Below, piece after piece: positions 35,311-52,755 of a DNA stretch of 64,000 nucleotides. Position numbers and translations under genes: made by a program. Within the stretch, counting starts at the first letter, position 1. Each line of letters opens with the position of its first letter. The stretch lies in contig CBDFLE010000006.1 in the NCBI GenBank assembly GCA_965248925.1, forward strand, positions 2,432,001 to 2,496,000, given 5' to 3'. Source of the DNA: Candidatus Multivoradales bacterium. Lineage in GTDB: Bacteria; Acidobacteriota; Thermoanaerobaculia; Multivoradales; J023. The notes under the pieces were generated by a model, which saw only the letters and a program-made list of their open reading frames with translations, did no database searches and was not told the DNA's origin.

Positions 35311-35883
35311 ATGCGAAAGAACACCTCTGTACTCGACCTCCTGCTAGAACTTCAGGCCCTCGACCGAGTGCCCAGGAGCGGCTACTCGCTGCGTGGCATC
35401 GCGGTGCCCGAGAGCGTTGCCGAGCACTCCTTCCACCTCGCCATGCTGGTCTGGGCATTGTCCCCTGAGGTGCCGGAAGTCGACCGCGAGCGCGCCGTTG
35501 AGCTGGCCCTGGTGCACGACTTGGCCGAGGTCAGGACCGGCGATTTTCCGCGCTCGGCTAGTGGCTACTTTCCCCCCGGCGCCAAGCGCGCCACCGAAGC
35601 CGCCGTCGCCCGCGACCTGCTCCACCCCTTGGGGGACCGGGCGCTGGAGCTATTTGCCGAATATCAAGCCAAGAGCACCACCGAGGCGCGATTCGTCGGC
35701 GCTTGCGACCGCCTACAGCTGCTGATCAAGACCCGTACCTATGAGAGTTCGGGCGCCACGGGGCTGGATGAGTTCTGGCACAAGGACTTCCCGGACGGGG
35801 GTTTCGAACCGATTAGGCAAATGCTCGACGAACTCCAACGCCGCCACGCCGCACAGCCTGGGTCCAAGCCCGGTCGAAAGTAG
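35311..35883 (+). CDS. HD-domain hydrolase (YfbR/HDDC2-like 5'-deoxynucleotidase)
   Basis: RSGY..ESVAEHSF, ALVHDLAEVRTGD, EARFV..CDRLQ. Confidence 0.88.
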   Translation: MRKNTSVLDLLLELQALDRVPRSGYSLRGIAVPESVAEHSFHLAMLVWALSPEVPEVDRERAVELALVHDLAEVRTGDFPRSASGYFPPGAKRATEAAVARDLLHPLGDRALELFAEYQAKSTTEARFVGACDRLQLLIKTRTYESSGATGLDEFWHKDFPDGGFEPIRQMLDELQRRHAAQPGSKPGRK

Positions 35884-35889
35884 GCAGCC

Positions 35890-36429
35890 TCAGTCGGCCA
35901 CGACAGATCCACCAGCCCGGTCGAGATCGATGCCTCGCTTGGCCAGCATCGCCCGCAAACGATCATAGACATTGTCACCGACCAGTGAGTGGGCACTGCC
36001 CAGAACATCACCCATCACCGTACGCAGCCGGCGAGTACCACTCCAGTGCTTCTCGGCAAAGGGCTCCATGTCGCGGCCGAGAACTTCGGTCAGCACCGCC
36101 ACGCTGAGCAGTAGATCGTCGAGAAACCCCATCGGGCCGAGCACCAACTCGGGCATCAGATCCAGCGGCATGATGAAGTAGGCCAAGGCACCCCCCACCA
36201 ACATGCGGGTCGAGCGCGGCACTTCTTTGTCGAGCGACAGTCGGACCAGGAGGATAAACACATCGGGCGCCAGCAGCAGCGCTTGTGCCGCTCCCGGACC
36301 CAGCTTACCGCCGCGCTTCTCCACCGTGTTTGCCACCCGTTCGCGCAGCCGGTCATAGAAGCTCAGCAAGCCAGCGGACGGCAGCTGATCGTCTTCGGCA
36401 TCGACAAAGGGCGTCGGTTCATTGCTCAT
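35890..36429 (-). CDS. DUF1232/YkvA family membrane protein
   Basis: ALAYFIMPLDLMPE..GFLDD. Confidence 0.88.
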   Translation of the reverse strand: MSNEPTPFVDAEDDQLPSAGLLSFYDRLRERVANTVEKRGGKLGPGAAQALLLAPDVFILLVRLSLDKEVPRSTRMLVGGALAYFIMPLDLMPELVLGPMGFLDDLLLSVAVLTEVLGRDMEPFAEKHWSGTRRLRTVMGDVLGSAHSLVGDNVYDRLRAMLAKRGIDLDRAGGSVVAD

Positions 36430-36442
36430 GGTGCTCTCCCGG

Positions 36443-37426
36443 TCAAATCAGGTAGGCGACGGCAAAACCGATTTGGGCAAACATCATCATCAAATACATG
36501 TGTACCCAAGACGGATGATTCTCGGTCTCGGTCAGCGAATCGGGATCCCGCACTAGTAGGTAGACGGTGTAGGCACCCCAGATCGTCAACAGAACTCCGA
36601 GCCAGATCAGCAGAGTGCTATTGCCAGTGAGGATCGGATGGGCCGGGTTCTGCGGATCCGGCAAGCGCGCCCCCAGCGGTAAGAGCAGCCAGGGCAGGAC
36701 GAAAAAAGGAGCGATCATCCAGGCTGCTTTCTTTGGCCCGTAGACGATCGGCAGCGTCTTGCAGCCACCGGCCAGGTCCCCCTCGATGTCGGCGAAGTCC
36801 TTGGTCGAAGAAGCACCGATGATGAACAAGGTGAAGATCAAGCCGATAAACCAGGGCTCGGCGTGCCAGACATGGGCCACCATCGCCCAACCCGCCGACT
36901 TGAGCAAGAAACCCCGCGGAATCGCCATTGTCAAACTAGCCAGCACCCCTCGCGCCTTGGTGCGACCCAGCGCCGGCGCCGAGTAGGCGAAGGTGAAGAG
37001 CATGCCGGCCAGGTAGATGAAGAAGGTCTCGTGAAATTGCAGCGGCGCCAGCCACTTCTCGCCCCAGCCGGTGAAGGGATAGACCACCACGCCCCAGGTA
37101 GGCACCAGGGCAAGAGCATAGAACACCCAGGTGAAGATCCACGCCTGACGCAGCGACAGCGCGCCGGTGACCAGCGGTCGATCGGGCTTGTTCAGCCGAT
37201 CGATTTCGAGGTCGTAGATCTGGTTGATCGCGTTCGAAGCCGCGTTCATGAAGCTGGCGCAGAGGGAACCCAGAACGACGGTGAAGATCACCGAAGCGGT
37301 CAGCGCCCGGCTCGGATCGGGATTGTGGATCGAGCCAAAGGCGCAGATCGCTCCCGAGAGGATGCCAAAGAGGGGCGGCAGCAGGGTAAAAGGTCGCGCC
37401 AGTTTGAGGTAGGAAGACAAGCTCAT
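36443..37426 (-). CDS. UbiA-family prenyltransferase (homogentisate-PT/DGGGPS-like motifs)
   Basis: ARPFTL, NQIYDLEIDRLNKPDRPL, YSAP, KDFADIEGD..KTLPI. Confidence 0.9.
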   Translation of the reverse strand: MSLSSYLKLARPFTLLPPLFGILSGAICAFGSIHNPDPSRALTASVIFTVVLGSLCASFMNAASNAINQIYDLEIDRLNKPDRPLVTGALSLRQAWIFTWVFYALALVPTWGVVVYPFTGWGEKWLAPLQFHETFFIYLAGMLFTFAYSAPALGRTKARGVLASLTMAIPRGFLLKSAGWAMVAHVWHAEPWFIGLIFTLFIIGASSTKDFADIEGDLAGGCKTLPIVYGPKKAAWMIAPFFVLPWLLLPLGARLPDPQNPAHPILTGNSTLLIWLGVLLTIWGAYTVYLLVRDPDSLTETENHPSWVHMYLMMMFAQIGFAVAYLI

Positions 37427-38781
37427 CGGCTCAGCACCATCGCCAGCAGCGCCGCGACCAACGCTCCGACCAGCGTGTTGAAAAAGTTAATCGCTTCGTT
37501 ATCGAGCAAGCCATGCTCTTCGAGGGTCGCCCCGGCGAGACTCTCGACCACCGTGCCTACAAAGCCGGCGACGGTGACGATCAGCACCCCCGCGAGGCCA
37601 TAGAAACCCACCGCCGAACCCAGTAGTGCAAGCAGCAAGGTAGCCCCCAGGCCGGCCACGGTTCCTTCCAAGGAAACCGCCCCCTCAGTGCCCCGGGGCA
37701 CTGGCTTCAAAGTGGTCAGCAAGAAGGTGCGCCGGCCCCACAGCTGCCCCAGCTCAGAGCTCACCGTGTCACCCGCGGCGGTGGCGAAAGCAGCGGCAAA
37801 GGCCAGCAAGTAGATCTCTTGCTGGCCGGTGGTCGCCGCGAAAACCGCTGCCACCGCGGCGACACCCGCATTGGCCACCGCGTGCTTCGCGCTGCGCCGG
37901 CCGCCCCCCTCCTGGGCCAGCTTGGCCGCCGCCTTCTTGGCATAGCCGATCTTGGTGGTACCGGTGCCGAGGACAAAGAAAGCGACCAGCAGGAGAAAGC
38001 CGCGCCAATCCAGAAAAGCATAAATCGCGGTGCCGAGCACAAAGCCCATCACCGCCCCCGACAAATCCACCGAGCGGGCGGCGTAGGCGGCACCGGCCAA
38101 GAGCAAATTGACCCCGGCGCCGATCGCCGCGATCTCGATCAAACCATCGGCCAGTCCAGCGCACCAGTACGCCTCACCGGAAAGCACGCCGAGCAAGACC
38201 AAGCCAGCCAAGAAAGGCACCGAGACGTTGTCGTCGATACCCTGCGGCTGCGATTCGATGAAGGCGGCGAAAAGGGCGGTCACTAAACACGCCAAGGCGG
38301 CAAAACCCAGCTCGATCTCGCCGCCGCCGGCTTGCCGGGCAACCGTCCAGCAGAGCAAAGTCGTAGCACCGAGGGTGCCAAAAATCACGTAGGCCAAGCT
38401 TCCCGACCAGGTCTTGCGCGGGTTCCACGGCAAGCGCGGCCCGCCCACCGTCATCCCCACCAGCGAGGCCATGCCGTCGCCAAAAGCGAGAATTCCCCAA
38501 ATCGCCGCGGCGATTTCTAGCCGCCGCCAGAAAACCAAGATCAGCAGCAGCACCGCCAGCGGATAGAGCACGATGCCGAGCGAGCGACCGCTAGCGGTCT
38601 CATGTTCGCGCCACATCTTCTTGCCGCCGATCCTGGGTAGGACGAAGACGTTGCTCAGCACCGCCGCCAGGGCGCACAGCGCGCCACCCAGCGGCCCAAG
38701 ATAGGCCAGGAGAAAGGCCAGCAAGCCAACCGCCATATGCACCAGCTTGCGCAGCAACTCACCTGGGGAAAGAGCACTCAT
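37423..38781 (-). CDS. fusion: CTP-dependent prenol (phytol/dolichol-type) kinase + DUF92 domain
   Basis: ELLRKLVH, FGDGMASLVG, KTWSGS, DDNVSVP (kinase); GGRRSAKHAVAN, DTVSSELGQ, GTEGAVSLEGT, NEAINF (DUF92). Confidence 0.88.
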   Translation of the reverse strand: MSALSPGELLRKLVHMAVGLLAFLLAYLGPLGGALCALAAVLSNVFVLPRIGGKKMWREHETASGRSLGIVLYPLAVLLLILVFWRRLEIAAAIWGILAFGDGMASLVGMTVGGPRLPWNPRKTWSGSLAYVIFGTLGATTLLCWTVARQAGGGEIELGFAALACLVTALFAAFIESQPQGIDDNVSVPFLAGLVLLGVLSGEAYWCAGLADGLIEIAAIGAGVNLLLAGAAYAARSVDLSGAVMGFVLGTAIYAFLDWRGFLLLVAFFVLGTGTTKIGYAKKAAAKLAQEGGGRRSAKHAVANAGVAAVAAVFAATTGQQEIYLLAFAAAFATAAGDTVSSELGQLWGRRTFLLTTLKPVPRGTEGAVSLEGTVAGLGATLLLALLGSAVGFYGLAGVLIVTVAGFVGTVVESLAGATLEEHGLLDNEAINFFNTLVGALVAALLAMVLSR

Positions 38782-39782
38782 CCGCTCCAAGCTCCGGTTT
38801 CCTTGAGCCAAGCGATGGTCTCCCCCAGGCCTTGCTCCAAAGTTCGCGGATCGTAGCCCAGGTCGTTCTGCGCCTTATACGACGACAGAGCCCAATCGTG
38901 GCGGTAGATCTCGATCAAGTCGGGAGTCAGCTTGGGAGTACCGCCGAACACTCGGGCCCAGGTTTTCATCAAGGCGCCGGATAAGGTCGCGACGCTGTCA
39001 GGAAACCGCAGCCCCGGCGGTTTGACCCCGGTCAGCCGATGGACCAGGGCGTAGAAATCGCCCTGCGAGATATTCTCGCCCCCCAGCACATAGCGCTCCC
39101 CGGCAGCCGCTTGCTCGAGCACCAGAACCACACCCTGCGCCACGTCGTCGACAAACGAGTAGTTCCAGCGCCGCGCCGGCTTGCCGACCAGGCCCGGCAG
39201 TTTGCGCCCCACCAAGTCGAGCAGGTGGCGGACCACGATATTGCCTTCAGTGAGTTCGCCAGGCCCGTAGATCACTCCCGGATAGACCACGTTCATCGGC
39301 ACCCCCTCGGCGATGGCCATGCGGGCGTGGCGATCTGACAGGGTCTTGGTGCGTTCGTAAGAGTTGATCCAAGGCCGGTCGTCCGGTGGCGCCGACTCAT
39401 CCAGCATGCCGCCGGGACCGTTCTCCGTCGGCCCCAACGCCATGAAGCTCGAAACATAGACCAGCTTAGCGACGCCCGCCTCCACCACCGCCTTGATGAC
39501 TTTCGCCGTACCGCCCACATTGATCCGATCAAAGTCGCCATCCGGCGCCATGATCTTGACCAAGGCAGCGGCATGAATCACCGCCTCACAGCCCTCGACC
39601 GCACGCCGCAGACTCTCCAGATCGGTGACATCTCCATCGGCGAACTCCACCCCCTCCGGAAGGCGCGAGCGATCAGAGGTCGGCCGCACCAGCAGCCTGA
39701 GCGAGTGGCCCTTCTGGTGCAATAGCGCGACCGTCTTACGGCCCAGAAACCCGGTGCCACCGGTGATCAGGATCTTCATCAT
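38778..39782 (-). CDS. extended SDR / NAD-dependent epimerase-dehydratase (farnesol dehydrogenase/HpnA-like)
   Basis: ILITGGTGFLG, YERTK, VYPGVIYGPGELTEGN, GERYVLGGEN. Confidence 0.85.
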   Translation of the reverse strand: MMKILITGGTGFLGRKTVALLHQKGHSLRLLVRPTSDRSRLPEGVEFADGDVTDLESLRRAVEGCEAVIHAAALVKIMAPDGDFDRINVGGTAKVIKAVVEAGVAKLVYVSSFMALGPTENGPGGMLDESAPPDDRPWINSYERTKTLSDRHARMAIAEGVPMNVVYPGVIYGPGELTEGNIVVRHLLDLVGRKLPGLVGKPARRWNYSFVDDVAQGVVLVLEQAAAGERYVLGGENISQGDFYALVHRLTGVKPPGLRFPDSVATLSGALMKTWARVFGGTPKLTPDLIEIYRHDWALSSYKAQNDLGYDPRTLEQGLGETIAWLKETGAWSG

Positions 39783-39976
39783 GGGGTCCTTAATTGCAAA
39801 GCGGGCAAAGCTGGAGAGACCGGCGATCAAGGGCCGCGTCGAGCCGCCTCAAAGGCAGTGAAACCACGTCATCCCAAGCCCTGTCACGAGCACCTACCCT
39901 ACCAGCAGGCGCCGTTTCGAGCGAGTCTCCATCCCCTTGCTGAGCAAGGAAGTGGGTGATGTTCACTGGCTTGGAC

Positions 39977-40294
39977 TCAGCGATCTGAGCCAAAGGGGCG
40001 CGACCGCTTTGGTGAGCGTTTCTGGCGCCCCTTGCGGTAGACGTCTTTGCGGTCAGCGATCCGAACCACGATCACCAGCAACCGATTGTCTTCGACGAAG
40101 TAGACGATCCGATAGGGTCCCTGGCGGATCCGGTACAACTTCGCTGCGCCCGAGAGCTTGACGCAACCGCGCGGCCGAGGCTCCTCTGCAAGCGCCAAGA
40201 TTCGGTCGACCAGCGTCCGGCGATCCTTCTTCCGAGTTACGCCATCAAGTTCCTTGGCCGCCGCCGCGGCGATACGGATTTCATATACGGCCAC
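39977..40294 (-). CDS. RelE/ParE family toxin
   Basis: PRPRGCVKLSG..YRIRQGPYRIVY..VVRIADRKDVY. Confidence 0.92.
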   Translation of the reverse strand: MAVYEIRIAAAAAKELDGVTRKKDRRTLVDRILALAEEPRPRGCVKLSGAAKLYRIRQGPYRIVYFVEDNRLLVIVVRIADRKDVYRKGRQKRSPKRSRPFGSDR

Positions 40295-40511
40295 GACGCC
40301 TCAGATCCCGGACGACTCCTTCAAAGCTAAGCTGTGGCCCATCGCGCCTCTCCCGGAAAGCCTCAAGATCTTCCGCGTCCTCGCCGAGGGAGAGTTCCAC
40401 CGCTTCGTTGACAAGCTCCGAGACCGACCGCTCGGTTGAGGCCGCCTTGAGCCGCAGAGCGCGGTGGAGTTCCGGGTCAAAGTAAACAGTGGCGCGCTTT
40501 GATGCTTGCAT
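40281..40511 (-). CDS. RHH/CopG antitoxin
   Basis: KRATVYFDPELHRALRLKAA..SVSELVNEAV..EDAEDLEAFRER. Confidence 0.9.
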   Translation of the reverse strand: MQASKRATVYFDPELHRALRLKAASTERSVSELVNEAVELSLGEDAEDLEAFRERRDGPQLSFEGVVRDLRRRGRI

Positions 40512-40615
40512 GGACCAAGGCTAGCCCCAAGTCGTTAAAACGTCAAGACGTCACTCCCTTTGGACTACCTGCCCGCAGCTTGACCCCAGTCGTTCTAGCC
40601 TTCCATACTCGATCC

Positions 40616-41278
40616 ATGACGGACTCCGCCTGGGAACAGCCAGAAGCGGTCGCGAAGTTTGCCGGTCGCGATCCTGACCACCGCCTGCTCGAGCTGATCG
40701 AGGACTACGAGGACCCCAGCACCGTGCGGGTGCTGGACCTGGGATGCGCCGGTGGGCGCAACAGCGAGTTGCTGGCGCGTTGTGGTTTCGATCTAACGGC
40801 ACTCGATGCATCACGAGCCATGGTGGCCCACAGCCGAGAGAGGCTGGCGCCAGTCCTCGACGATGAACAGGCGCAGCGTCGGGTGCGCCATGGACGGATG
40901 GACGACCTGGGCGAGTTGGCGGATGGTTCGTTCGATCTGGTGGTCGCCCTGGGAGTCTATCACTGTGCTGAGAGCCGTGCCGAGTGGCAGTCTGCGCTCA
41001 GCGAAACCGCTCGGGTGCTGCGCAACGACGGCCATCTGCTTCTGGCGTTGTTCACTCCCGAAACCGATTTGACCGGCGATGGGATCCGCCCTGTGCCGGG
41101 GCAACCCGACGTCTATGAGGGGTTTCCTTCGGGACGATCGGTGTTGGTCGATCAGCAAGCCCTTGATGCTGAGATGGCGCGTCTCGGGCTGAAACCAGCA
41201 GTGCCCAGCCGCACGGTGCGAGTCGAGATGGATTCCGGACGCCGGGTGACGGTCAACGCCCTTTATCGTCGAGCGTAG
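40616..41278 (+). CDS. class I SAM-dependent methyltransferase
   Basis: VLDLGCAGGRN, SFDLVVALG, ARVLRNDG. Confidence 0.88.
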   Translation: MTDSAWEQPEAVAKFAGRDPDHRLLELIEDYEDPSTVRVLDLGCAGGRNSELLARCGFDLTALDASRAMVAHSRERLAPVLDDEQAQRRVRHGRMDDLGELADGSFDLVVALGVYHCAESRAEWQSALSETARVLRNDGHLLLALFTPETDLTGDGIRPVPGQPDVYEGFPSGRSVLVDQQALDAEMARLGLKPAVPSRTVRVEMDSGRRVTVNALYRRA

Positions 41279-41405
41279 AGCCAGGGACGAGAAGCCGACC
41301 GAACCACCCTGCGCTTCCACGAGGGTTTGAAAGCCCTCGCTATGGTGTGACGTCCCTGTTGGGGTGAAGAGTAATATGCCTGTTTTCAGTCGTTTGTGTG
41401 AAGAC

Positions 41406-41639
41406 TTACGCTATTCGCTGGAGTTTGCGAACGGTAATCAGGTCGGTGTCGTCTACAGGTCGTACATCGCCCGGTTTCAGGGTCACCAATGCGCCGGTTC
41501 GGCCCGAGGCAGTAACAAATTCGACCTCTATACCGTCCGGCTCATAGGTTTCCACCACGGCGCCCAGATCACCCGCGCAGAGACCCTTGGAGGGTAAGTC
41601 GCGAGCCAGAACAACAGTGTCGAAGGACTTGTGGTCCAT
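41406..41639 (-). CDS. DUF4926 family protein (putative antitoxin/immunity)
   Basis: DTVVLARDLP..GLCAGDLGAVVE..EVEFV..GRT.ALVTL. Confidence 0.85.
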   Translation of the reverse strand: MDHKSFDTVVLARDLPSKGLCAGDLGAVVETYEPDGIEVEFVTASGRTGALVTLKPGDVRPVDDTDLITVRKLQRIA

Positions 41640-41641
41640 GA

Positions 41642-41977
41642 TCAATTCTCCGGATACACGGTAACGAAGCGGGGAATCCCCTCGCCCACCAGTACGATCC
41701 ACACGGTCACAACTTCGGCAGTCCGCCCCATCTTACCGACCATCCTACCGCGAACTACGTACTTTTGCCCATAGGCGCTGCGGTCGCCGACTTCCGCACT
41801 GCCTTGGACAGCGATCCTCTTGAGTTCGGCCGCGAATTCCTGCGAGGTCTCGCGACTGAACCCGAGCTTCGCAAAGAAGAGGGCTTTGAACCGGCCGACG
41901 GGATGTTCAAGCGAGAGTATGTAGTCACGGATCTTCTGCGGTGCAATGGTGACGTGCTCAGCTTGTGGGAGCTTCAT
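41642..41977 (-). CDS. DUF6883 family protein (putative toxin)
   Basis: KIRDYILSLEHPVGRFKA.FF..LGF..YGQKY..TVWI..PRFVT. Confidence 0.8.
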   Translation of the reverse strand: MKLPQAEHVTIAPQKIRDYILSLEHPVGRFKALFFAKLGFSRETSQEFAAELKRIAVQGSAEVGDRSAYGQKYVVRGRMVGKMGRTAEVVTVWIVLVGEGIPRFVTVYPEN

Positions 41978-42214
41978 CGGCTAACACTCCAGAGGAACGC
42001 GCGAACATCTGCCAACCCACCGGCCTCAAATGTGACATGACTATTGGGAAGATCTCTGGCATTGCTCTTGCTGGATTTCGACTGGTACCTCCCATTCCTT
42101 CTAGGAGATATCCAGAAAAGCGGACCACTTCTAAAGACCTTCGCAGAGCCCCTCGGATCCCGACACCGCGAACTTCAGATTCTAGCACATCCAAGGCACT
42201 CTCTTCGCCGCTCC

Positions 42215-44341: not shown

Positions 44342-44706
44342 TGGATAACTTCTCAGTGTTGGTTAGTTGGCGCTAGTGCCCCCTTGGGGGATGGGTCGAA
44401 ACCTCCAAGACAAGGGAACCGCCAGCCTGCGCGACCAGTCCCCAGTTCGCACTCGCAACGCCGTTCGTGATCGAGTCTGGTGCACTGAAGACACGCCCCA
44501 GCCAGCGCTCTGAGCAACACAACTACGCAGATTTTGCTCTTCTTGGCAGGGCGAAAGGCAACCACTGGCTTCTCCAAGTCGGAATTCTTGACCTCGATTA
44601 TCAAGGTTACCAGGGCGACCTTACCCTCCGTCACACATCAGCATGAACTCCTGCCACTGCGTGTCCATGCACAATTATTCAAGAGTAGTGGCCACTTCGC
44701 CGCACG

Positions 44707-44964
44707 TCAAGACAGCCGGAGACGAATATTGCGGCTTGTAACGAGGAGCAGCTTCAACGGTTCGCCGCGAATATGCAGCGAGTCGACGAAGTCGGAATCC
44801 TTGGTTGCGACAACCCTGGTTTCGCGGATAGAGAGTTCGTTGATCTCGCGATCCGTGATCCCGTTGGCCCGTTTCAGGTCTGGGGTGTGGATGGCATCGT
44901 GCCTGCGTTCGCGGAGTCGGAACACGAGACGGCGGGGAAGGTGGGCGTCGATCAGGAAATCCAA
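44707..44964 (-). pseudogene. DUF5615 PIN-like toxin, apparently C-terminally truncated
   Basis: FLIDAHLP, DAIHT, D.EI, VATKDSDF, KLLLV; stops at 85 aa. Confidence 0.72.
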
Positions 44965-45191
44965 CCAGCTGCCGGATCGATGCGTTTGAGGCGCACTACC
45001 CGTGCCGCGTATGCCAAAGCAGCGAGGATGTCGTCTTGTTCGAGATCCTCGTAGTCTGCGAGTATCTCCTCTAACGTCATGCCTGAACTCAACAGCTCAA
45101 GCACCATCTCCACGGTATAGTGCAATCCGCGAAGCGTCGGTCTGCCGTGGCAAATATCCGGGTCAATCGCTATACGGTCAAGCTGTTCCAT
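44952..45191 (-). CDS. DUF433 family antitoxin
   Basis: RIAIDPDICHGRPTLRG..LELLSSGMT.EEILADY.DLE.DDI.AAL.YA. Confidence 0.92.
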   Translation of the reverse strand: MEQLDRIAIDPDICHGRPTLRGLHYTVEMVLELLSSGMTLEEILADYEDLEQDDILAALAYAARVVRLKRIDPAAGWIS

Positions 45192-45253
45192 GAACTCACC
45201 TCACTGCGATCCTACTACTCCGCAGACCGCTCTTTCCTACCAACCGCATCCTC

Positions 45254-46174
45254 TCAGCGCTTCGCCACCGCCTGCCAGAGATCGCGCAAGGCTTCGTCCA
45301 GCGAGCGCTCCGGCTTCCAGCCCAGCGCTCGCAGACGAGCGCTGTCACCACAGAGCACCGGCACGTCGATCGGGCGTACGCGGCTTTCTTCGCGTTCGAT
45401 CTCGGCGGTGACCCCTGAGATCGAACGCAGTCGATCCAAGACTTCGGCAATCGAATGTGCCTTGCCGGTGGCCAGGTTGTAGACCTCGCCGGGCTCGCCG
45501 CGTTCTAGCAAGATGCAGTAGCCGCGGGCGTAATCGGCGATGTGGACAAAGTCTCGTCGCGGGCTCAGATCACCCACCCGGATCACCGGTTCGGCTTCGC
45601 CGCGATCGATCGCCGCGAGCTGGGCGGCGAAGGAGGGCAGGGCAAACTGCGGCGACTGGCCCGGACCGATGGCGTTGAACGACCGGGCCACCAGCGCCCC
45701 ATGATCCTGTGCCACCACTTCGGCACAGGCCTTGGTCATGGCATAGGGAGTGCGCGGATCGAGGGGTCGGTTTTCTGCAATCGGCTGCTGGTCTTCGGGC
45801 ACCGAGCCATAGACCTCGGCGCTCGAAGCGAACAGCACTTTGCAGTCGATACCCCGGTGCAGGCGCACCGCCCGCACCAAGTTACGGGTGCCAACGAAAT
45901 TGACCCGCTGGTAGTCGCCCGGACGCTGCCACGATTCACCAACATGGGACAGGCCGGCGAGGTGGACGACGGCGTCGGGACGGCAGGACTCGATGACCTC
46001 GTTCAACCGCTCGGGGTCGAGCACGTCGGCAACGTGGATCTGGATATCCGCCAGCGCGCCACCACGGCCATTGGTGTCGCTGGTCAAGCCCTCGACTGAG
46101 TGCCCGGCGGCCTGTAGCTCTGGGGCTAGCTGGCCGCCGACGAAACCGGTGATGCCAGTGATCAGAATTCGCAT
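45254..46174 (-). CDS. GDP-4-keto-6-deoxy-mannose reductase (Rmd)-like SDR
   Basis: ITGITGFVG, HLAG.SHV, SSAEVYG, YAMTK, FNAIGPGQSPQF, VGDL..RRDF. Confidence 0.8.
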   Translation of the reverse strand: MRILITGITGFVGGQLAPELQAAGHSVEGLTSDTNGRGGALADIQIHVADVLDPERLNEVIESCRPDAVVHLAGLSHVGESWQRPGDYQRVNFVGTRNLVRAVRLHRGIDCKVLFASSAEVYGSVPEDQQPIAENRPLDPRTPYAMTKACAEVVAQDHGALVARSFNAIGPGQSPQFALPSFAAQLAAIDRGEAEPVIRVGDLSPRRDFVHIADYARGYCILLERGEPGEVYNLATGKAHSIAEVLDRLRSISGVTAEIEREESRVRPIDVPVLCGDSARLRALGWKPERSLDEALRDLWQAVAKR

Positions 46175-46180
46175 CGCGGC

Positions 46181-47140
46181 TCAGGCAACCCGCTCGAGCC
46201 AGTAGTCGAAGGTGTCGCGCAAGGTCTTGTCGAACGGCACCTTGGGCTCCCAACCGGTATCGGCCCGCAGTTTCGAGCTGTCGCCGATCAGAATCTCGAC
46301 GTCTGAGGGTCGCAGACGGTCCGGGTCGGTCTGCACGTCGACCTCGACCTCGGCCAGCACGATCAGGCGGTCGAGCAACTCGCGGATGGTGATGCCCACC
46401 CCGGTGCAGATGTTGTAGACCTCGCCCGGCTTGCCAAGCTGGGTGGCCAACCAGTAGGCGCGCACGGTGTCGCGCACGTCGGTGAAGTCACGGATCGCAT
46501 CGAGATTGCCCACTCGCATCACCGGTTTGGCCAGGCCTTTCTTGATCCGCGCCAGCTGACGGGCGAAGTTGGAGGTGACGAAAACTTCTCCGCGCCGCGG
46601 TCCGGTGTGATTGAAACCGCGGGTACGCAGGGTCTTCAGACCATAGCTCTGGAAGTATTGGTAGGCCAGATAATCCTGACCGACCTTGGACACCGCGTAG
46701 GGGGACAGCGGGCGTAGCGGATTGGTCTCTTTGATCGGCGTCTCATCAGAATGCACCAGGCCGTACTCCTCGCTCGAGCAGGCGATCTGAATCACCGGAT
46801 CGAGACCCAGATCACGTACCGCCTCGAAGATGTGAGTCTGGCCGAGGATGTTGCCACTCAGGGTATCCATCGGCGCGCTCCAGCTGGTCGGCACGAAACT
46901 CTGCGCCGCCAGGTGGAAAATCAAATCCGGCCGCACCGCCGCCAGGGTGCGATGGACCGATTGATAATCGCGCAATTCGGTCTCGTGCAAGGTAACCTGA
47001 TCAAGGATGCCCTCGATGTTGTCTAGCGGACTGCGCCAGCGGCGAGTGCCGTGAATCTCGACCTGCGGTTGCTCGGCGAGCAGCAGCTCGGCCAAGTGCG
47101 AACCGGCAAAGCCGGTAATGCCAGTGATCAATGCTTTCAT
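46181..47140 (-). CDS. GDP-mannose 4,6-dehydratase / Rmd-like SDR
   Basis: HLAAQSFV, SSEEYG, SPYAVSK, FNHTGPRRGEVFVTS, GNLDAIRD. Confidence 0.85.
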   Translation of the reverse strand: MKALITGITGFAGSHLAELLLAEQPQVEIHGTRRWRSPLDNIEGILDQVTLHETELRDYQSVHRTLAAVRPDLIFHLAAQSFVPTSWSAPMDTLSGNILGQTHIFEAVRDLGLDPVIQIACSSEEYGLVHSDETPIKETNPLRPLSPYAVSKVGQDYLAYQYFQSYGLKTLRTRGFNHTGPRRGEVFVTSNFARQLARIKKGLAKPVMRVGNLDAIRDFTDVRDTVRAYWLATQLGKPGEVYNICTGVGITIRELLDRLIVLAEVEVDVQTDPDRLRPSDVEILIGDSSKLRADTGWEPKVPFDKTLRDTFDYWLERVA

Positions 47141-47985
47141 GCTATTCCTCTTGAATCATCCAAGTAGGCCACCAGCCCTGCTTCCCAGGATTCGGCGGGC
47201 CGGCCGACAGCGGCCTCGAAACGTTCAACACCGAGCACCGAGTAGGGCGGTCGGCAAGCAGGTCGTGGAAACTCCTCGGTGGGCACCGGGCTGATCTCGT
47301 GCCCGGGCCGCACATGGCTTGAGATGGCGACGGCGAAGCCGTGCCAGGACACCGCCTGGCGATTGCGATAGTGCATCACCCCATGGCTGCCACGCTGCGC
47401 TAGATCCCAAATGGCGCGCGCCAAATAAGGGGTGTAGGTGGGACAACCCGTCTGGTCGTCCACCACTCGCAAAGGGGTGCCGGCAAGCATCAAGCGTCGC
47501 ATGGTGAGAACAAAATTCGGGCCACCCGGCCCAAAAAGCCAACTCGAACGCAGCACCAAGGCGCGTCGATAGCGCAAAGCGCTCTGCTCACCGAGCAACT
47601 TGCTCTCGCCATAGACCGACAACGGGCCGGTGTCGGCATCCTCAGGGTAGGGCTCGCTGCCGCCGCCAGCAAAAACATAGTCGCTCGACACCTGGACCAA
47701 CGCCGCGTCGTGTAGCTCGGCCGCCGCCACCGCGTTCTCGACCGCTCGGCCATTGATCTCCAAAGCGTGCTCGCGCTGTTCTTCGCAGGCATCGACCTGG
47801 GTGAAGGCGGCACAATTGACGATCAGTTGCGGACGGAAGGTATCGGCCCAGTAGAGCAGCCGTTGGCGGTCGGTCAAATCGGCTTGCGAACTTGACAGCG
47901 CGAGCACCGCCACATCCCGCCGCCGCCACTCGGCAGCCACCGCTTGGCCCAACATGCCTGTACCGCCCAACACCAAAGCACGCAT
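47137..47985 (-). CDS. rmlD: dTDP-4-dehydrorhamnose reductase
   Basis: GGTGMLG, NCAAFTQVDACE, SSDYVF, YGESK, VVDDQ.GCPT. Confidence 0.92.
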   Translation of the reverse strand: MRALVLGGTGMLGQAVAAEWRRRDVAVLALSSSQADLTDRQRLLYWADTFRPQLIVNCAAFTQVDACEEQREHALEINGRAVENAVAAAELHDAALVQVSSDYVFAGGGSEPYPEDADTGPLSVYGESKLLGEQSALRYRRALVLRSSWLFGPGGPNFVLTMRRLMLAGTPLRVVDDQTGCPTYTPYLARAIWDLAQRGSHGVMHYRNRQAVSWHGFAVAISSHVRPGHEISPVPTEEFPRPACRPPYSVLGVERFEAAVGRPAESWEAGLVAYLDDSRGIA

Positions 47986-47996
47986 CGACTGCCTCC

Positions 47997-49067
47997 TCAG
48001 GCTATGCCCACCTCGGAGTTGTCTCCGAGCATGAAGCGATAGGCCTTGGGCTTGATGTCGGGGCGAGCGATGCGCACGTTGCGGCCGATCAACGAGCCGT
48101 CGATGCGGAGCGGCACATCGCTGATCTCGCTGTCGGCGAGGACGATCGAGTTCTCGATCTCGCAATGGGACAGCCGGCAGCCATCGCCGATCGAAGTGTA
48201 GGGGCCGACGAAGGTGTGGCTCAGCCGCACCCCATTGCCGATCACCGCCGGCCCGCGCACCACGCAATCGTGCAATTCGGTATTGGCGCCAAGCTGCACC
48301 CGCCCTTCAATCCGATTACCGGCGCTGGTGGCATGCCCACCATGGGGGATATTCATCGATTCGAGCACGATGTGGTTGGCTTCGAGCATGTCTTCCAGTT
48401 TGCCGGTGTCTTTCCACCATCCCCGGATTTTGTGCGGATGCACACTGAGCCCGCGATCGATCAGGTCCTGAATCGCATCGGTGATCTCCAGCTCGCCCCG
48501 CGCCGAGGGCCTGATCCGGTGCACCGACTCGAAAATCTTGGCGTCGAACATGTAGACCCCAACCAGGGCCAGGTTGGAGCGCGGTTCGGCGGGTTTCTCG
48601 ACCAAACGCTCGACCCGGCCGTCGGCGGTCAGCTCGGCAACCCCGAACTGCTGCGGATTGGGTACTTCGGCAAGCAAGATCTCGCTGTTGCAACCCAGTT
48701 CCTGGAACTCCTCCACCAGCGAAGTGATGCCACCCGCGATCAGATTGTCGCCCAGGTACATGACGAAGGAATCGTCGCCGATGAAGTCCTCGGCGATCAT
48801 CACCGCATGGGCCAAACCGCGGGGTGCGTCTTGCTCGATGTAAGTCACGCGGGCGCCGAATTGACTGCCATCGCCCACCGCTGCCTTGATCTCGTCTTTG
48901 GTCTCACCGACGATGATGCCGATCTCGGTGATGCCGGCGGCAACAATCGACTCGATGCCGAAAAAGAGCACCGGCTTGTTGGCCACCGGCACCAGCTGTT
49001 TGGCCGAGGTGTAGGTCAGCGGTCTGAGCCGTGTACCTTTGCCACCGGAAAGAATCAATCCTTTCAT
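47997..49067 (-). CDS. rmlA: glucose-1-phosphate thymidylyltransferase (long form)
   Basis: LSGGKGTRLRPLT..AKQLVPVANKP, YLGDN, EKP, PSARGELEIT, WWKDTG. Confidence 0.92.
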   Translation of the reverse strand: MKGLILSGGKGTRLRPLTYTSAKQLVPVANKPVLFFGIESIVAAGITEIGIIVGETKDEIKAAVGDGSQFGARVTYIEQDAPRGLAHAVMIAEDFIGDDSFVMYLGDNLIAGGITSLVEEFQELGCNSEILLAEVPNPQQFGVAELTADGRVERLVEKPAEPRSNLALVGVYMFDAKIFESVHRIRPSARGELEITDAIQDLIDRGLSVHPHKIRGWWKDTGKLEDMLEANHIVLESMNIPHGGHATSAGNRIEGRVQLGANTELHDCVVRGPAVIGNGVRLSHTFVGPYTSIGDGCRLSHCEIENSIVLADSEISDVPLRIDGSLIGRNVRIARPDIKPKAYRFMLGDNSEVGIA

Positions 49068-49126
49068 TTCTTTTCTACTCTGGACCGCGCCAAGGTCCCG
49101 CGGTCACGGGTCACGGAGCCCGGCGC

Positions 49127-51571
49127 TCAGGAGGAACCGAGCCTGCCGGTGAGGTCCAAGAAAGTGCCCACGTTCTTGAGCGTGAACGAGAAGCGGTAAT
49201 CGCGGTCGGTGTCACGCTGGGGGCTGTTCACCCCACCTTGGCGCAACTTCGATTCGCGGTATTCGAGTTCCAAGCTGTAGCAACTGCCGATATAACGAAT
49301 GAAGTGACGCTGTTGCAGCAGCTCTTTTGCCAGCAAGTCGTAGCTGACCCCCGAATCGAGATAGAGCCGTTCCGGTAGCAACGAGAAACTGGTGCTGAAG
49401 CGCAACTGATCACTGCGCCGACGCTTCACCTCCTCATTATCGGTCAAGCGGAAGCGGGTGAACCAGCTGACTCCGAAACCATGGTTGCCGATCTTGCTAC
49501 CACCGCTCAAGGAGAAATTCTCCACCTGGCTGAAGAGGGTGCTGTACCGGGTTTCGAGCTTGAAGCTGGTTTCGGGATTAGGATTGAAGCGAAACAAGCC
49601 GTTGATCGGCCCCGCCGAACGGGTCGCCGGCATCCCATCCAGAGTTCCCCGCTGACCGGGAAGGTCGTCGTCGAGGCTAACGCCCTGGCTGAAGCTCAGC
49701 GAGGCGATTTCGAATGCGCTGCCTTCATTGCCATCTTCATCCGGCGGTGGCTTGGCGAGGATCCGATTGGTCAGAGTGAAGAACAGTCCGTTGACCGAAA
49801 ATAGCGGATCAACCTCGTCGAAGAGGAAGATCCGGTCTTGGTCAGAAGGACCGTCGCCGCCGTCGGTGGCATTCATACTGCCATCAACGAAGGCATATTG
49901 AATCCGCGGCTCGATGATGTGCTTGAGCTTGCCTTTCTTCTTTTTGCCGCCTTCACGATCGTAAATCCGCGAGAAGCTTGGCCCGATTAGCTCCAAGCTG
50001 GCGGTAGGAAAGGTACGTACCAGGCTGTCACCGGTAAACTTGGTGCGCGCCGCGTCGACGACCTCGCCATCGTCGTCGAGAATGTCGGCTCCATTCAGGC
50101 TGTCGGAATACCAGGTGAATCGCTGTCCCAGCTTCAGTTCGGCCGACAACCATGGCAGACGGCTCAAGGGAATCGATATTTCCGGCAGCAGGTCGGCGCG
50201 CTGGTAGGCGTAATTGAACTCTTCAAACTTCGCTTCGCGACCGCTGCCGTCGGTAAGAACTTCGAGATCGATTTCAAAACTACTCACCGAACTCAGCACA
50301 CTGAGATAGATCGGCAGCTTGCCCAGCTTGTTGTTGCGCAACCGGTATTCGACCTCGGGCAGCTGGCGACGCACGTCCAGAGTGCCGGTGCCGCTAGTGG
50401 GACGAATGATCTCACGCTGGTCGACCTGGAAATTCAGCGAGTGGTTGCCAAAACTACGACTCAGATGCCCTACTGAGTAGACTTCGGCCCGGGTCTGGCG
50501 TGACACATCGCGCTCGTACTCTTGCTGGAAATCGAGATCGGAGTAGTCTTCGAAATGCAAGATACCCCGCCAGCCCCCCCACAGGTTGTTGCTTTGGTGG
50601 TCGTAGCGAATTCGCCACCGATTGCGGGTGACTCCTGGCTCGTAGTTACGTGGATCGAAGAAGGCGAAGATGCCATCTTCTTCGAGGCCCTCCAGACCGC
50701 TGGGCTCGTTGAGCAGGTAGCCGCTAAAGCTACCGCTCGAATCCTCGGAAAAGCGGTAGCGATATTCGGCACCGAAGCCATAAAACTGCTTGCTGTAGAG
50801 ATCGAGAAAGAAGGTGGCGTCGGCACTGCGGCCGAGGGTCTTGAAGTAAGCCAAGCCGAGGTAGCCACCGCGGCGGTTCGAATAGCCGGGCTTGGGAATC
50901 AGCATGCCGCTGCTGCGCTCGGTCTTCGCCGGCCACAGGATGTAGGGAAAATACATCGCCGGAATGTTGCCGAAGCGCATTCGCGCGTTGCGGATCCGCG
51001 CATAGCCGCCGACGGTGATCGAAGCCTTGGTCAAGGCTAGAGACCAGGGCGGTTTGTCCTCGTCGTCACAGGAGGTGAAGACACCGTCGGTGATGAGGTA
51101 CTCGTCGGGGCCCACTTTGGCGATGGTGTCACCGGTGAAGTAATACCCGGGATCGACGAAGGCCTTGCCGTTGGTGATCTTGCCGGTGCGGGTTTCGAGG
51201 TCCCATTCGAGGCTGTCGCCGGACATCCGTCGCGGCCCCTCGTCAATGATCACGTTGCCTTCGGCGGTGAGCAGGTGGGTGGCGATGTCGTAACGAGCGC
51301 GATCGGCCTGCACCTTGGTGTCGCCATACTTCAACCGCAGCCCTTCGGTGGCGAGGAAATACTCCCCCGCTTGGTACTGAAACTGGCCGGCCGAGCCCTC
51401 GATCTGGCCACCCTGTTCGAGCTTGATGTCGAAAGAGGTGCGGTCGCTGGTGTCTGCGGCCACGTCTTCTTCGGCGGCATCGGTCCGGGCGGACTGCTGG
51501 GCCTGCAACGGCAGCCCACCGGCCAGCAGGCCGAAAAGCAACAACGGAGTCACGAATAACGATCGAATCAT
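49127..51571 (-). CDS. lptD: LPS-assembly outer membrane protein LptD
   Basis: signal peptide, OstA-like N-domain, FTSC..PPW, PYILWP..R.SG.LIP, KHIIEP; beta-barrel C-terminus. Confidence 0.85.
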   Translation of the reverse strand: MIRSLFVTPLLLFGLLAGGLPLQAQQSARTDAAEEDVAADTSDRTSFDIKLEQGGQIEGSAGQFQYQAGEYFLATEGLRLKYGDTKVQADRARYDIATHLLTAEGNVIIDEGPRRMSGDSLEWDLETRTGKITNGKAFVDPGYYFTGDTIAKVGPDEYLITDGVFTSCDDEDKPPWSLALTKASITVGGYARIRNARMRFGNIPAMYFPYILWPAKTERSSGMLIPKPGYSNRRGGYLGLAYFKTLGRSADATFFLDLYSKQFYGFGAEYRYRFSEDSSGSFSGYLLNEPSGLEGLEEDGIFAFFDPRNYEPGVTRNRWRIRYDHQSNNLWGGWRGILHFEDYSDLDFQQEYERDVSRQTRAEVYSVGHLSRSFGNHSLNFQVDQREIIRPTSGTGTLDVRRQLPEVEYRLRNNKLGKLPIYLSVLSSVSSFEIDLEVLTDGSGREAKFEEFNYAYQRADLLPEISIPLSRLPWLSAELKLGQRFTWYSDSLNGADILDDDGEVVDAARTKFTGDSLVRTFPTASLELIGPSFSRIYDREGGKKKKGKLKHIIEPRIQYAFVDGSMNATDGGDGPSDQDRIFLFDEVDPLFSVNGLFFTLTNRILAKPPPDEDGNEGSAFEIASLSFSQGVSLDDDLPGQRGTLDGMPATRSAGPINGLFRFNPNPETSFKLETRYSTLFSQVENFSLSGGSKIGNHGFGVSWFTRFRLTDNEEVKRRRSDQLRFSTSFSLLPERLYLDSGVSYDLLAKELLQQRHFIRYIGSCYSLELEYRESKLRQGGVNSPQRDTDRDYRFSFTLKNVGTFLDLTGRLGSS

Positions 51572-52755
51572 GCCGAGAGCCGCTCCACGATGACCGCGGT
51601 GGCCTCGCCGCCACCGAGACAAATTGCCGCCAAGCCGCGACGCACACCGCGTTCCTGCATGGCATGTAAGAGGGTCACTACAATGCGCGCGCCGGAGGCG
51701 CCGATCGGATGCCCCAGAGCTACCGCCCCGCCCCGCACATTGAGCCTCTCTTCGGCAATGCCCAGATCCTTCATGCAGGCCAGGGCAACCACCGAGAAAG
51801 CCTCGTTGATCTCGAACAAATCAATCTCGTCAATCTGCAAACCAGCGCGTTCCAACACCCGCTGGGCAGCACCCACCGGCGCGGTGGTAAACCACTCCGG
51901 CTGCTGCGCGAAGGTGGCCTGAGCGACTAGCCGAGCCAACGGCCGACATCCCAGTTCGGCGGCTCGCTCCGCAGTGCTCAGCACCAGCGCGGCGGCGCCG
52001 TCGTTGATGGTGCTGGCATTGGCGGCGGTCACCGTCCCGCCATCGCGCTTGAATGCCGGCCGCAAGCGGGCCATCTTCTCGAAGTTCGCCCGCGAGGGCT
52101 CCTCGTCGGCCTCGACGATCCGTAGATCACCGCGGCGCTGCGGCACCTCGACAGGCACGATCTCCTGCGCTGTCAGACCCGCTTCCATCGCCGCTTGTGC
52201 CCGCTCGTAGCTGCGCTGGGCGAAAGCGTCCTGCGACTCACGGCCGAAACCGTATTCGGCGGCACAGATCTCGGCGCAGTTGCCCATGTGGAAGTCGTTC
52301 TTGGCATCCCACAAGCCGTCGTGAACCAGTGAGTCGAGCAACTGGCTGTGGCCGAGTCGCAGACCGCTGCGGGCCTTGGGCAGTAGGTAGGGTGCATTTG
52401 ACATGCTCTCCATGCCACCGGCGGCGACCAGGCCGAAGTCGCCACAGCGGAGATCGTTGGCGGCGCCCATTAGCGCCCACATGCCGGAGCCGCAAACCTT
52501 GTTCAGGGTAATGGCACCGGTAGCAGGCGGGCAGCCGGCGCCGAGAGCCGCCTGGCGAGCCGGTGCTTGGCCAACGCCGGCCGGCAGGACGCAGCCCATG
52601 TAGACCTGATCGACCTGTCCGGGATCCACACCAGCCCGTTCGACGGCCCCGCGCAGCGCTACACTGCCTAACTCGGGGCCGGTTTGACTGGCCAATGCAC
52701 CCTGAAAAGCACCGATCGGAGTCCGAGCGGCACTCAAGATGACGACGTCCTGCAT
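51568..52755 (-). CDS. acetyl-CoA acetyltransferase (thiolase)
   Basis: RTPIG, NKVCGSG, GGMESMS, EINEAF, GHPIGASG, CLGGG. Confidence 0.95.
   Translation of the reverse strand: MQDVVILSAARTPIGAFQGALASQTGPELGSVALRGAVERAGVDPGQVDQVYMGCVLPAGVGQAPARQAALGAGCPPATGAITLNKVCGSGMWALMGAANDLRCGDFGLVAAGGMESMSNAPYLLPKARSGLRLGHSQLLDSLVHDGLWDAKNDFHMGNCAEICAAEYGFGRESQDAFAQRSYERAQAAMEAGLTAQEIVPVEVPQRRGDLRIVEADEEPSRANFEKMARLRPAFKRDGGTVTAANASTINDGAAALVLSTAERAAELGCRPLARLVAQATFAQQPEWFTTAPVGAAQRVLERAGLQIDEIDLFEINEAFSVVALACMKDLGIAEERLNVRGGAVALGHPIGASGARIVVTLLHAMQERGVRRGLAAICLGGGEATAVIVERLSA

Follow-up and report, generated by a model that had tools for sequence, protein, structure and literature searches.

The window analysed here, the whole 64,000-nucleotide stretch of a Candidatus Multivoradales (Acidobacteriota) contig (G000:C6:2432001-2496000, from a source genome of 7.98 Mb in six contigs that is 96.9% complete), carries four minus-strand genes arranged head to tail, which encode an extended short-chain dehydrogenase/reductase (SDR), a fusion of a kinase-like domain with a DUF92 domain, a UbiA-superfamily prenyltransferase, and a DUF1232 protein. 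Homologues with named hosts put the genome in the class Thermoanaerobaculia. The genes form a compact and widely conserved set, with which this soil-type acidobacterium probably converts a free isoprenoid alcohol to the diphosphate and then transfers the chain to an acceptor molecule. The four genes and the two halves of the fusion lie as follows (coordinates of the window).

38778..39782, minus strand: extended SDR, 334 aa from the ATG at 39782; Pfam Epimerase, 3Beta_HSD and NAD_binding_4
37423..38781, minus strand: two-domain membrane protein (the fusion), 452 aa
38107..38781, minus strand: N-terminal half of the fusion (residues 1-225), a predicted polyprenol/dolichol/phytol-kinase-like domain of the CTP-transferase superfamily
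37423..38106, minus strand: C-terminal half of the fusion, DUF92 (COG1836, VTE6 family)
36443..37426, minus strand: UbiA-superfamily prenyltransferase, 327 aa; Pfam UbiA
35890..36429, minus strand: DUF1232 small membrane protein, 179 aa; Pfam DUF1232, 45.3 bits, E 7.1e-12

As the initial annotation had described, the first three genes are connected by overlapping stop and start codons: the SDR stop TGA (38778-38780) and the fusion ATG (38779-38781) overlap as ATGA, and the same ATGA joins the fusion stop (37423-37425) to the UbiA ATG (37424-37426). The UbiA stop is separated from the DUF1232 ATG (36429) by a 13-nt spacer with a Shine-Dalgarno-like run, GGGAGAG. A promoter and terminator scan returned no sigma-70-like site and four terminator-like sites, where 5.3 were expected.

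The gene order recurs in 80 related loci, and the arrangement is far beyond chance. These loci were searched with tblastn, carry fusions 57-67% identical to that of the window, and all come from Thermoanaerobaculia/Holophagales metagenome-assembled genomes (MAGs); adjacency was counted only in loci with room, i.e., with enough flanking DNA. The fusion was matched in 80/80 loci, UbiA in 75/80 (directly downstream of the fusion in 70/73), and the SDR in 72/80 (directly upstream of the fusion in 67/74), so that the synteny check named in the initial annotation finds the three genes together elsewhere. DUF1232, which had been noted as co-oriented and possibly part of the operon, was matched in 39/80 loci and is an optional fourth gene: of the 65 loci with room, 32 have it directly downstream of UbiA and five at another position, and it was not found in 28. 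The methyltransferase and ABC_tran_2 genes of the window each had no tblastn match in any of the 80 related loci. As well, an HD-domain protein (HD_3, YfbR-like 5'-deoxynucleotidase type; 35311-35883, plus strand) is convergent to the operon end, and a homologue, usually in the opposite orientation, was matched near the module in 26/80 loci; a phosphohydrolase next to a prenyl-phosphate pathway could be relevant or a coincidence.

Co-occurrence was counted in a phylum sample of 301 Acidobacteriota genomes, in which the clade of the window UbiA is present in 98 and DUF92 in 132. DUF92 is found in 96 of the 98 clade-positive genomes, against 36 (33 over the cut-off) of the 203 clade-negative ones. 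In these 96 genomes it lies directly upstream of UbiA on the same strand in 62, divergently in four, at a distance on the same contig in two, and on another contig in 28, which indicates that the co-occurrence survives the loss of linkage. In one same-order family both genes are absent from 5/5 genomes, and HppD is present in all five. The SDR counts (E <=1e-50, with seven candidates per genome scored) are lower bounds: at least 59 genomes carry the SDR, which is directly upstream of the DUF92 domain in 50/59, the median distance of 684 nt matching the size of the N-terminal kinase domain, and which stays upstream of the kinase fusion even where UbiA lies elsewhere. Two unpublished genomes, G024 and G152, are counted here; each has UbiA next to DUF92, and G152 has the SDR and HppD in addition. 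If they are left out, the figures are 94/96 for DUF92, 60 for adjacency, 49/58 for the SDR, and 22/96 for HppD. In a set of 80 metagenome loci, the UbiA relatives of which are mostly 44-55% and up to 75% identical to the window protein, 26 of the 46 with room have DUF92 directly upstream of UbiA, and 22/38 have the SDR together with the N-terminal kinase domain upstream. In the three metagenome loci nearest a Planctomycetota representative, no partner gene was seen in the surrounding 5 kb.

The first gene encodes an extended SDR, as initially annotated, with Pfam matches to Epimerase (108.9 bits, E 3.4e-31), 3Beta_HSD and NAD_binding_4 and with the motifs TGGTGFLG (residues 7-14) and YERTK (residues 142-146); hydropathy reveals no hydrophobic segment, and the protein is predicted to be soluble. 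Its best NCBIfam models, HpnA (220.1 bits, below the cut-off of 367.65), SdmB (sterol demethylase, 142 bits) and OleD (107 bits), are all lipid-acting or lipid-associated, suggesting an HpnA/SdmB/OleD-like reductase or dehydrogenase of lipid type. The farnesol-dehydrogenase likeness that had also been claimed is a language-model cluster lead without an alignment: the nearest protein Atlas clusters (score 0.99) include one that is mostly from Streptophyta and another that is auto-named 'dihydroflavonol-4-reductase/farnesol dehydrogenase'. At4g33360 presumably falls in the same SDR subgroup. In plants, FLDH is the farnesal/farnesol enzyme that precedes FOLK, according to the available part of PMC13415981.

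The C-terminal half of the second gene product belongs to DUF92 (Pfam 191.8 bits against a gathering threshold of 27.5, E 1.7e-56), and the fusion is the sole DUF92 gene in the source genome. On TIGR00297 the protein, which carries an extra domain, reached 191.1 bits against a cut-off of 205.85. D338 and D427-N428-E429 are invariant columns of the DUF92 half in the family alignment. The family was predicted in 2011 to act in phytol-phosphate metabolism (PMC3223725, accessible portion), and VTE6 is described as a phytyl-phosphate kinase and the partner of VTE5 in the accessible portion of PMC13415981.

The N-terminal half matched no Pfam or NCBIfam model even at E 10, and its assignment as a kinase therefore needed profile and fold evidence. 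Its profile aligned with that of 27 acidobacterial CdsA proteins (hhalign probability 95.2, E 2.7e-8, 88 columns) over the GDG...K-x-W-x-G...ES core, and D102, G127, E176, D184 and N185 are invariant. The same motif aligns weakly between the N-terminal and DUF92 halves (hhalign E 3.3e-4, probability 38), and metal-binding aspartates are conserved in both kinase-like halves. Shorter relatives of the N-terminal half amount to 123 proteins, and among the matches listed JGI names 11 dolichol kinase and four phytol kinase; some relatives of this half are stand-alone genes on long contigs. For the AlphaFold 2 (AF2) model of this half (predicted local distance difference test, pLDDT, 89.8), Foldseek returned nothing at E <=0.001, with TmCdsA ranked first, weakly, at E 0.19, and VIA-align gave the top Z of 6.5 to CdsA (4q2e_A, 172 residues aligned), which tied with archaeal CarS (5guf_A, root-mean-square deviation 3.0, 106 residues) and, among the best-ranked rows, with 9lni_A, a protein designed de novo. 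When the profile was run against PDB sequences, a chance match at E 1.1 was all that came up. Taken together, profile, fold, the names of relatives and the invariant residues place the N-terminal half, as a predicted member, in the CTP-transferase superfamily that also includes CdsA, CarS and polyprenol kinases. The initial reading of the second gene as a phytol/farnesol-kinase domain fused to DUF92 holds at this superfamily level, given the Pfam DUF92 match, the CdsA alignment and the relatives' names. The kinase-DUF92 fusion itself is not new, and its archaeal description dates from 2015: in the part of Makarova et al. that is available (PMC5898192), the same archaeal architecture appears with a Sec59-like domain ahead of arCOG02245/DUF92, conserved aspartate pairs are described, a kinase step in isoprenoid synthesis is predicted, and DUF92 is related distantly to CdsA-type cytidylyltransferases.

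The third gene encodes a UbiA protein (Pfam PF01040, 110.6 bits against 34.2, E 9.9e-32), the clade placement of which rests on curated hidden Markov model (HMM) scores and PDB comparisons. Its motif 1, NQIYDLEIDRLNKPDRPL, starts at residue 68; the two aspartate-rich motifs are NQIYDLEID (68-76) and KDFADIEGD (209-217), and across the clade (n=49) N68, D76 and D210 are invariant, while Q69, D72, K209, D213, G216 and D217 occur in at least 90% of members. No NCBIfam cut-off was reached by this UbiA or by any of 17 clade representatives. The window protein scored 100.5 bits on PRK12884 (cut-off 269), 94.8 on ChlG (PRK07566, the second-best NCBIfam match; cut-off 313), 77.8 on BchG (TIGR01476; cut-off 212.3), 76.4 and 74.3 on the DGGGPS models (cut-offs 296 and 353), 62.7 on TIGR02056 (cut-off 436), 53.1 on homogentisate phytyltransferase (HPT, NF009525, ranking ninth; cut-off 226), and 15.7 on the DPPR-synthase model. 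An exhaustive search returned 3684 relatives at E <=0.001, 173 of these at E <=1e-30, and the named clade members belong to Acidobacteriota, Planctomycetota and 'Deltaproteobacteria' MAGs. The nearest solved sequences in the PDB search are ChlG (E 5.9e-16 over residues 7-238) and MjDGGGPS (E 2.6e-14). For the AF2 model (pLDDT 95.2), the best fold match is MjDGGGPS (6m31_A, E 2.3e-10, template modelling score 0.75 on the target), and DGGGPS, AfUbiA, UBIAD1 and ApUbiA were matched at E 2e-10 to 2e-5. By these sequence comparisons, UbiA is a predicted member of an uncharacterised clade between DGGGPS, ChlG/BchG, HPT and PRK12884.

Natural fusions of DUF92 with UbiA exist (P0029, 785 aa, and P0408). 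Other UbiA relatives carry an N-terminal FA_desaturase-family di-iron domain, and still others a C-terminal domain of the type I phosphodiesterase/alkaline-phosphatase type (among P0366, P0502, P0387 and P0482); these desaturase and phosphodiesterase fusions may hint at later steps on the product. The source genome holds further UbiA paralogues, namely heme O synthase, MenA in a men operon, one of DPPR-synthase type and one unclassified. The DPPR-type paralogue (L005, G000:C6:2814626-2815297) passes the decaprenyl-phosphate phosphoribosyltransferase model with 294.6 bits against 234. UbiA proteins of this type are unusual outside Actinobacteria.

The initial annotation had taken UbiA for the homogentisate prenyltransferase type on the basis of its motifs. 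The motifs quoted are present, and both HPT-type motifs, NQxxDxxxD and KD(I/L)xDx(E/D), can be read in the protein; the class assignment itself was not supported, since the HPT score (53.1 against 226 bits) lies below those of PRK12884, ChlG, BchG and DGGGPS. The HPT cut-off was likewise missed by 17/17 clade representatives, with a best score of 111.4. In the accessible section of PMC8226212, from which both motif definitions are taken, NQxxDxxxD is the form found in plant flavonoid prenyltransferases, aligned with VTE2. MjDGGGPS also carries IDRINKP and KDFEDMEGD in the PDB alignment; NKP and KDxxDxEGD are thus common to MjDGGGPS, and only the NQ of motif 1 is HPT/flavonoid-prenyltransferase-like.

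Gene content was examined as well, including the search for hppD and tocopherol cyclase that had been suggested initially. HppD is present in the source genome (453.8 bits), about 155 kb from the module, and no match to tocopherol cyclase (Tocopherol_cycl) was found there. Across the sampled Acidobacteriota, HppD (E <=1e-30) occurs in 23 of the 98 clade-positive genomes versus 72 of the 203 clade-negative ones, and at least 21 of the HppD-less clade-positive genomes are at least 98% complete. HppD therefore has no association with the clade, which leaves a homogentisate acceptor unsupported for it, and the tocochromanol-like outcome foreseen at first was not borne out. Furthermore, PcrB/GGGPS had no match in the source genome, and the best match there to BchL, a marker of dark-operative protochlorophyllide oxidoreductase (DPOR), was 44 bits against a cut-off of 345, in agreement with the earlier description of an apparently non-phototrophic host. 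In the best-supported reading homogentisate is not the acceptor, and gene content speaks against geranylgeranylglyceryl phosphate (GGGP) and chlorophyllide as well.

In relatives, the module stands at the end of a longer same-strand string, in which lptD, an RmlA-like nucleotidyltransferase, RmlD and two dehydratase/epimerase SDRs precede the SDR, the fusion and UbiA (order read in L016). Of the 61 related loci whose upstream flank is complete, 55 carry the RmlA-like gene upstream in the same orientation and 52 the LptD C-terminus. In the window the deoxysugar genes are parted from the SDR by a defence island of about 5.4 kb (39831-45253), and no such gap exists in the relatives. The island has a GC content of 0.51-0.55 versus 0.60-0.66 around it; no integrase was seen in it, and a direct-repeat search around it gave short, imperfect matches only. 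The features upstream of the module are as follows.

45254..51622, minus strand: ancestral upstream neighbours (Pfam), including an RmlD-like reductase
49127-51622, minus strand: lptD
47997-49067, minus strand: RmlA-like nucleotidyltransferase
46181-47140 and 45254-46174, minus strand: two 4,6-dehydratase/epimerase-type SDRs
42215-44341: OLD-family ATPase-TOPRIM nuclease in the island (PADLOC Old, 322 bits)
40499-41278, plus strand: S-adenosylmethionine (SAM) methyltransferase in the island (weak PADLOC mad2 match)
39977-40294: open reading frame (ORF) of a ParE-type toxin in the island, with a small ORF upstream

Where UbiA is unlinked from the kinases, its neighbours vary by genome, and the neighbourhoods of 18 unlinked UbiA genes contain no recurrent acceptor-pathway gene. 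In one same-order genome (L100, G005:C40, 6068-6943), a farnesyl diphosphate (FPP) synthase gene (NF045485, 276.4 against 275 bits) is directly upstream of an unlinked UbiA on the same strand, and in another genome a divergent polyprenyl synthase gene adjoins it; these two are the only isoprenoid-related neighbours. As an FPP synthase adjoins UbiA in one relative, the donor need not be salvaged phytol. The FPP synthase gene of L100 is itself preceded by a gene for the lipid A deacylase PagL. In five loci of one same-class family (L101, L102, L107, L111 and L112), the unlinked UbiA has close by, on the same strand, a membrane protein without family assignment (350-420 aa), and in three of the five a DUF2157 membrane protein separates the two. 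In addition, a geranylgeranyl-reductase superfamily model gave three full-length matches under its cut-off of 158.8 bits (150.2, 122 and 121.8 bits; G000:C5:1042454-1043416, C6:2592051-2592896 and C6:3704849-3705790), and these genes could influence how saturated the prenyl chain is.

In the proposed mechanism, the soluble extended SDR would interconvert an isoprenoid aldehyde and the corresponding alcohol, and the N-terminal domain of the fusion would phosphorylate the free prenol in the CTP-dependent manner of VTE5, FOLK and dolichol kinase. The second phosphate would then be added by the DUF92 domain, as it is by VTE6, and the resulting prenyl diphosphate would be the donor for the downstream UbiA, which would join the chain to a non-homogentisate acceptor, most likely a membrane or envelope lipid precursor. 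This kind of acceptor is suggested by the O-prenylating closest relatives (ChlG and DGGGPS), by the fusions to phosphodiesterase and to desaturase/hydroxylase domains, and by the ancestral position behind lptD and sugar-nucleotide genes. We give about an even chance to the locus being a dedicated prenyl-activation and transfer module, in which the SDR, a putative prenol kinase and a putative prenyl-phosphate kinase feed one UbiA. The gene order, translational coupling, domain families, conserved aspartates, the co-occurrence and fusion of DUF92 with UbiA, and the lack of an HppD association support this module. More tentatively, and with a probability that we set well under even, the prenyl chain might be O-linked, as an ether or ester following DGGGPS/ChlG chemistry, to a glycerolipid or glycolipid precursor. 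The product would be an as yet unseen isoprenoid envelope lipid in about a third of Acidobacteriota and in relatives from other phyla, and its chain would come from the re-activation of a free prenol, perhaps a modified one, and not from diphosphates made de novo.

Other explanations share parts of this evidence. It is very improbable that UbiA is of homogentisate type and that the operon turns salvaged phytol or farnesol into a prenylquinone akin to a tocochromanol or plastoquinone: the NQxxDxxxD motif with Q69 in at least 90% of the 49 clade members, the HppD of the source genome (453.8 bits) and the 104-111 bits of some clade members on the HPT model would fit it, whereas the HPT cut-off is missed by UbiA (53.1 versus 226) and by 17/17 representatives, HppD is found in 23/98 clade-positive versus 72/203 other genomes and lies about 155 kb away here, the source genome has no tocopherol cyclase match, and motif 2 and NKP are common to MjDGGGPS. 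We also consider unlikely an archaeal-type ether-lipid step, in which a DGGGPS-like UbiA would O-prenylate a glycerol-phosphate-based lipid to yield a bacterial isoprenoid ether lipid. MjDGGGPS is the best structural match and the second-best solved sequence relative, DxEIDRxNKP and KDFxDxEGD are common to both proteins, the DGGGPS models give 74-76 bits on UbiA, and the phosphodiesterase-fused relatives (P0387 and P0482) would suit a phosphorylated acceptor. However, PcrB/GGGPS was not found in the 96.9%-complete genome, so no GGGP source is known, the DGGGPS cut-offs of 296 and 353 are missed, and motif 1 has NQ where MjDGGGPS has ND.

A further alternative is a lipid-linked sugar pathway, in which the kinase domains would recharge a polyprenol carrier and UbiA, acting like the mycobacterial decaprenyl-phosphate phosphoribosyltransferase, would build an envelope glycolipid with the deoxysugar enzymes. 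In relatives the module is directly behind the same-strand Rml-type (55/61) and lptD (52/61) genes, relatives of the N-terminal half are named dolichol kinase by JGI, and the best NCBIfam model of the SDR is the 'hopanoid-associated sugar epimerase' HpnA. We still judge this pathway to be improbable, since the DPPR model gives 15.7 bits on UbiA and a separate paralogue passes its cut-off (294.6 versus 234), the 5.4-kb island stands between the sugar genes and the module in the window, the pairing of UbiA with DUF92 persists where the genes have moved, and the recharging of a carrier takes one phosphate, not a two-domain kinase. A different view of the enzymes themselves, that the DUF92 half is a cytidylyltransferase making a CDP-activated prenol or that UbiA is an acceptor-free terpene cyclase of UbiA type, seems highly unlikely to us. 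It would agree with the distant relationship of DUF92 to CdsA-type cytidylyltransferases (PMC5898192, available part), with the weak alignment of the two fusion halves on the same motif (hhalign E 3.3e-4, probability 38), and with the lack of a recurrent acceptor-pathway gene adjoining unlinked UbiA, while VTE6, the only characterised DUF92 member cited, is a phytyl-phosphate kinase (PMC13415981, available part) and UbiA keeps both aspartate-rich motifs and the transferase fold.

Several observations also weigh against the prenyl-activation and transfer module that we prefer. UbiA and the kinases are on different contigs in 28 of 96 genomes, and 19 of the 46 metagenome loci with room have no DUF92 within 5 kb. 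Kin are not independent and relatedness inflates the co-occurrence, so that the figures are counts, not statistics. At the protein level, the TIGR00297 score is 15 bits under its cut-off, PF01148 is absent from all 18 aligned members of the N-terminal half in a Pfam search, and the structural matches of this half reach just Z 6.5, which is moderate for helical proteins. That the module in relatives ends a longer operon of lptD and deoxysugar genes could mean that its chemistry is another one. Finally, the source genome has six polyprenyl synthases, which makes a salvage-type activation hard to account for; a modified or recycled prenol is one possible reason for it.

Each part of the module belongs, by sequence, to a familiar type of enzyme (SDR, VTE5-like kinase, VTE6-like kinase and UbiA transferase), and what appears to be unpublished is the conserved coupling of the kinase fusion to an SDR and one UbiA clade in non-phototrophic bacteria. 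No published description of the bacterial operon was found in the literature on DUF92/COG1836/VTE6 with UbiA or prenyltransferase; the supplementary tables of PMC5898192, outside the available part of that paper, may list bacterial contexts. The module is common, as the UbiA clade is present in 98 of the 301 sampled Acidobacteriota genomes, and identification of its product would add a lipid class to a soil phylum that ranks among the most abundant. It would, in addition, be the first biochemical entry to bacterial DUF92 proteins and to the activation of prenols in two steps outside plastids. If the proposal is true, an isoprenoid envelope lipid could be a bacterial source of the soil and sediment isoprenoid biomarkers that are now credited to archaea.

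Compared with known systems, the module resembles plant and cyanobacterial prenol salvage (FLDH, VTE5/FOLK, VTE6 and the UbiA phytyltransferases) in its order of chemistry, with an SDR, a kinase-like domain, DUF92 and UbiA. In plants, FLDH is a farnesal/farnesol SDR, and VTE5 and FOLK are phytol and farnesol kinases, according to the available part of PMC13415981. Unlike this salvage route, the window has both kinase-like domains in one polypeptide and all genes in one operon of a non-phototroph, no curated cut-off identifies its UbiA as HPT, ChlG or MenA, and the module has no link to HppD. The archaeal COG0170-COG1836 fusions (arCOG02245, e.g., Mbar_A3310; PMC5898192, available part) are built from the same two domains, each with a conserved aspartate pair; the fusion of the window is bacterial and coupled to an SDR and UbiA, whereas uppS is the single conserved archaeal context given in the available part of that paper. 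ChlG (9sau, 9sas), the best solved sequence relative of the window UbiA, has NDFYD and NDFKSVEGD in place of NQIYD and KDFADIEGD, and its model gives 94.8 bits versus a cut-off of 313. MjDGGGPS (6m31) differs from the window UbiA in having ND rather than NQ in motif 1, the two proteins being 24% identical, with the window UbiA below the DGGGPS cut-offs and GGGPS not found in the genome, yet it has IDRxNKP and KDFxDxEGD in common with the window UbiA and is its best fold match among solved structures.

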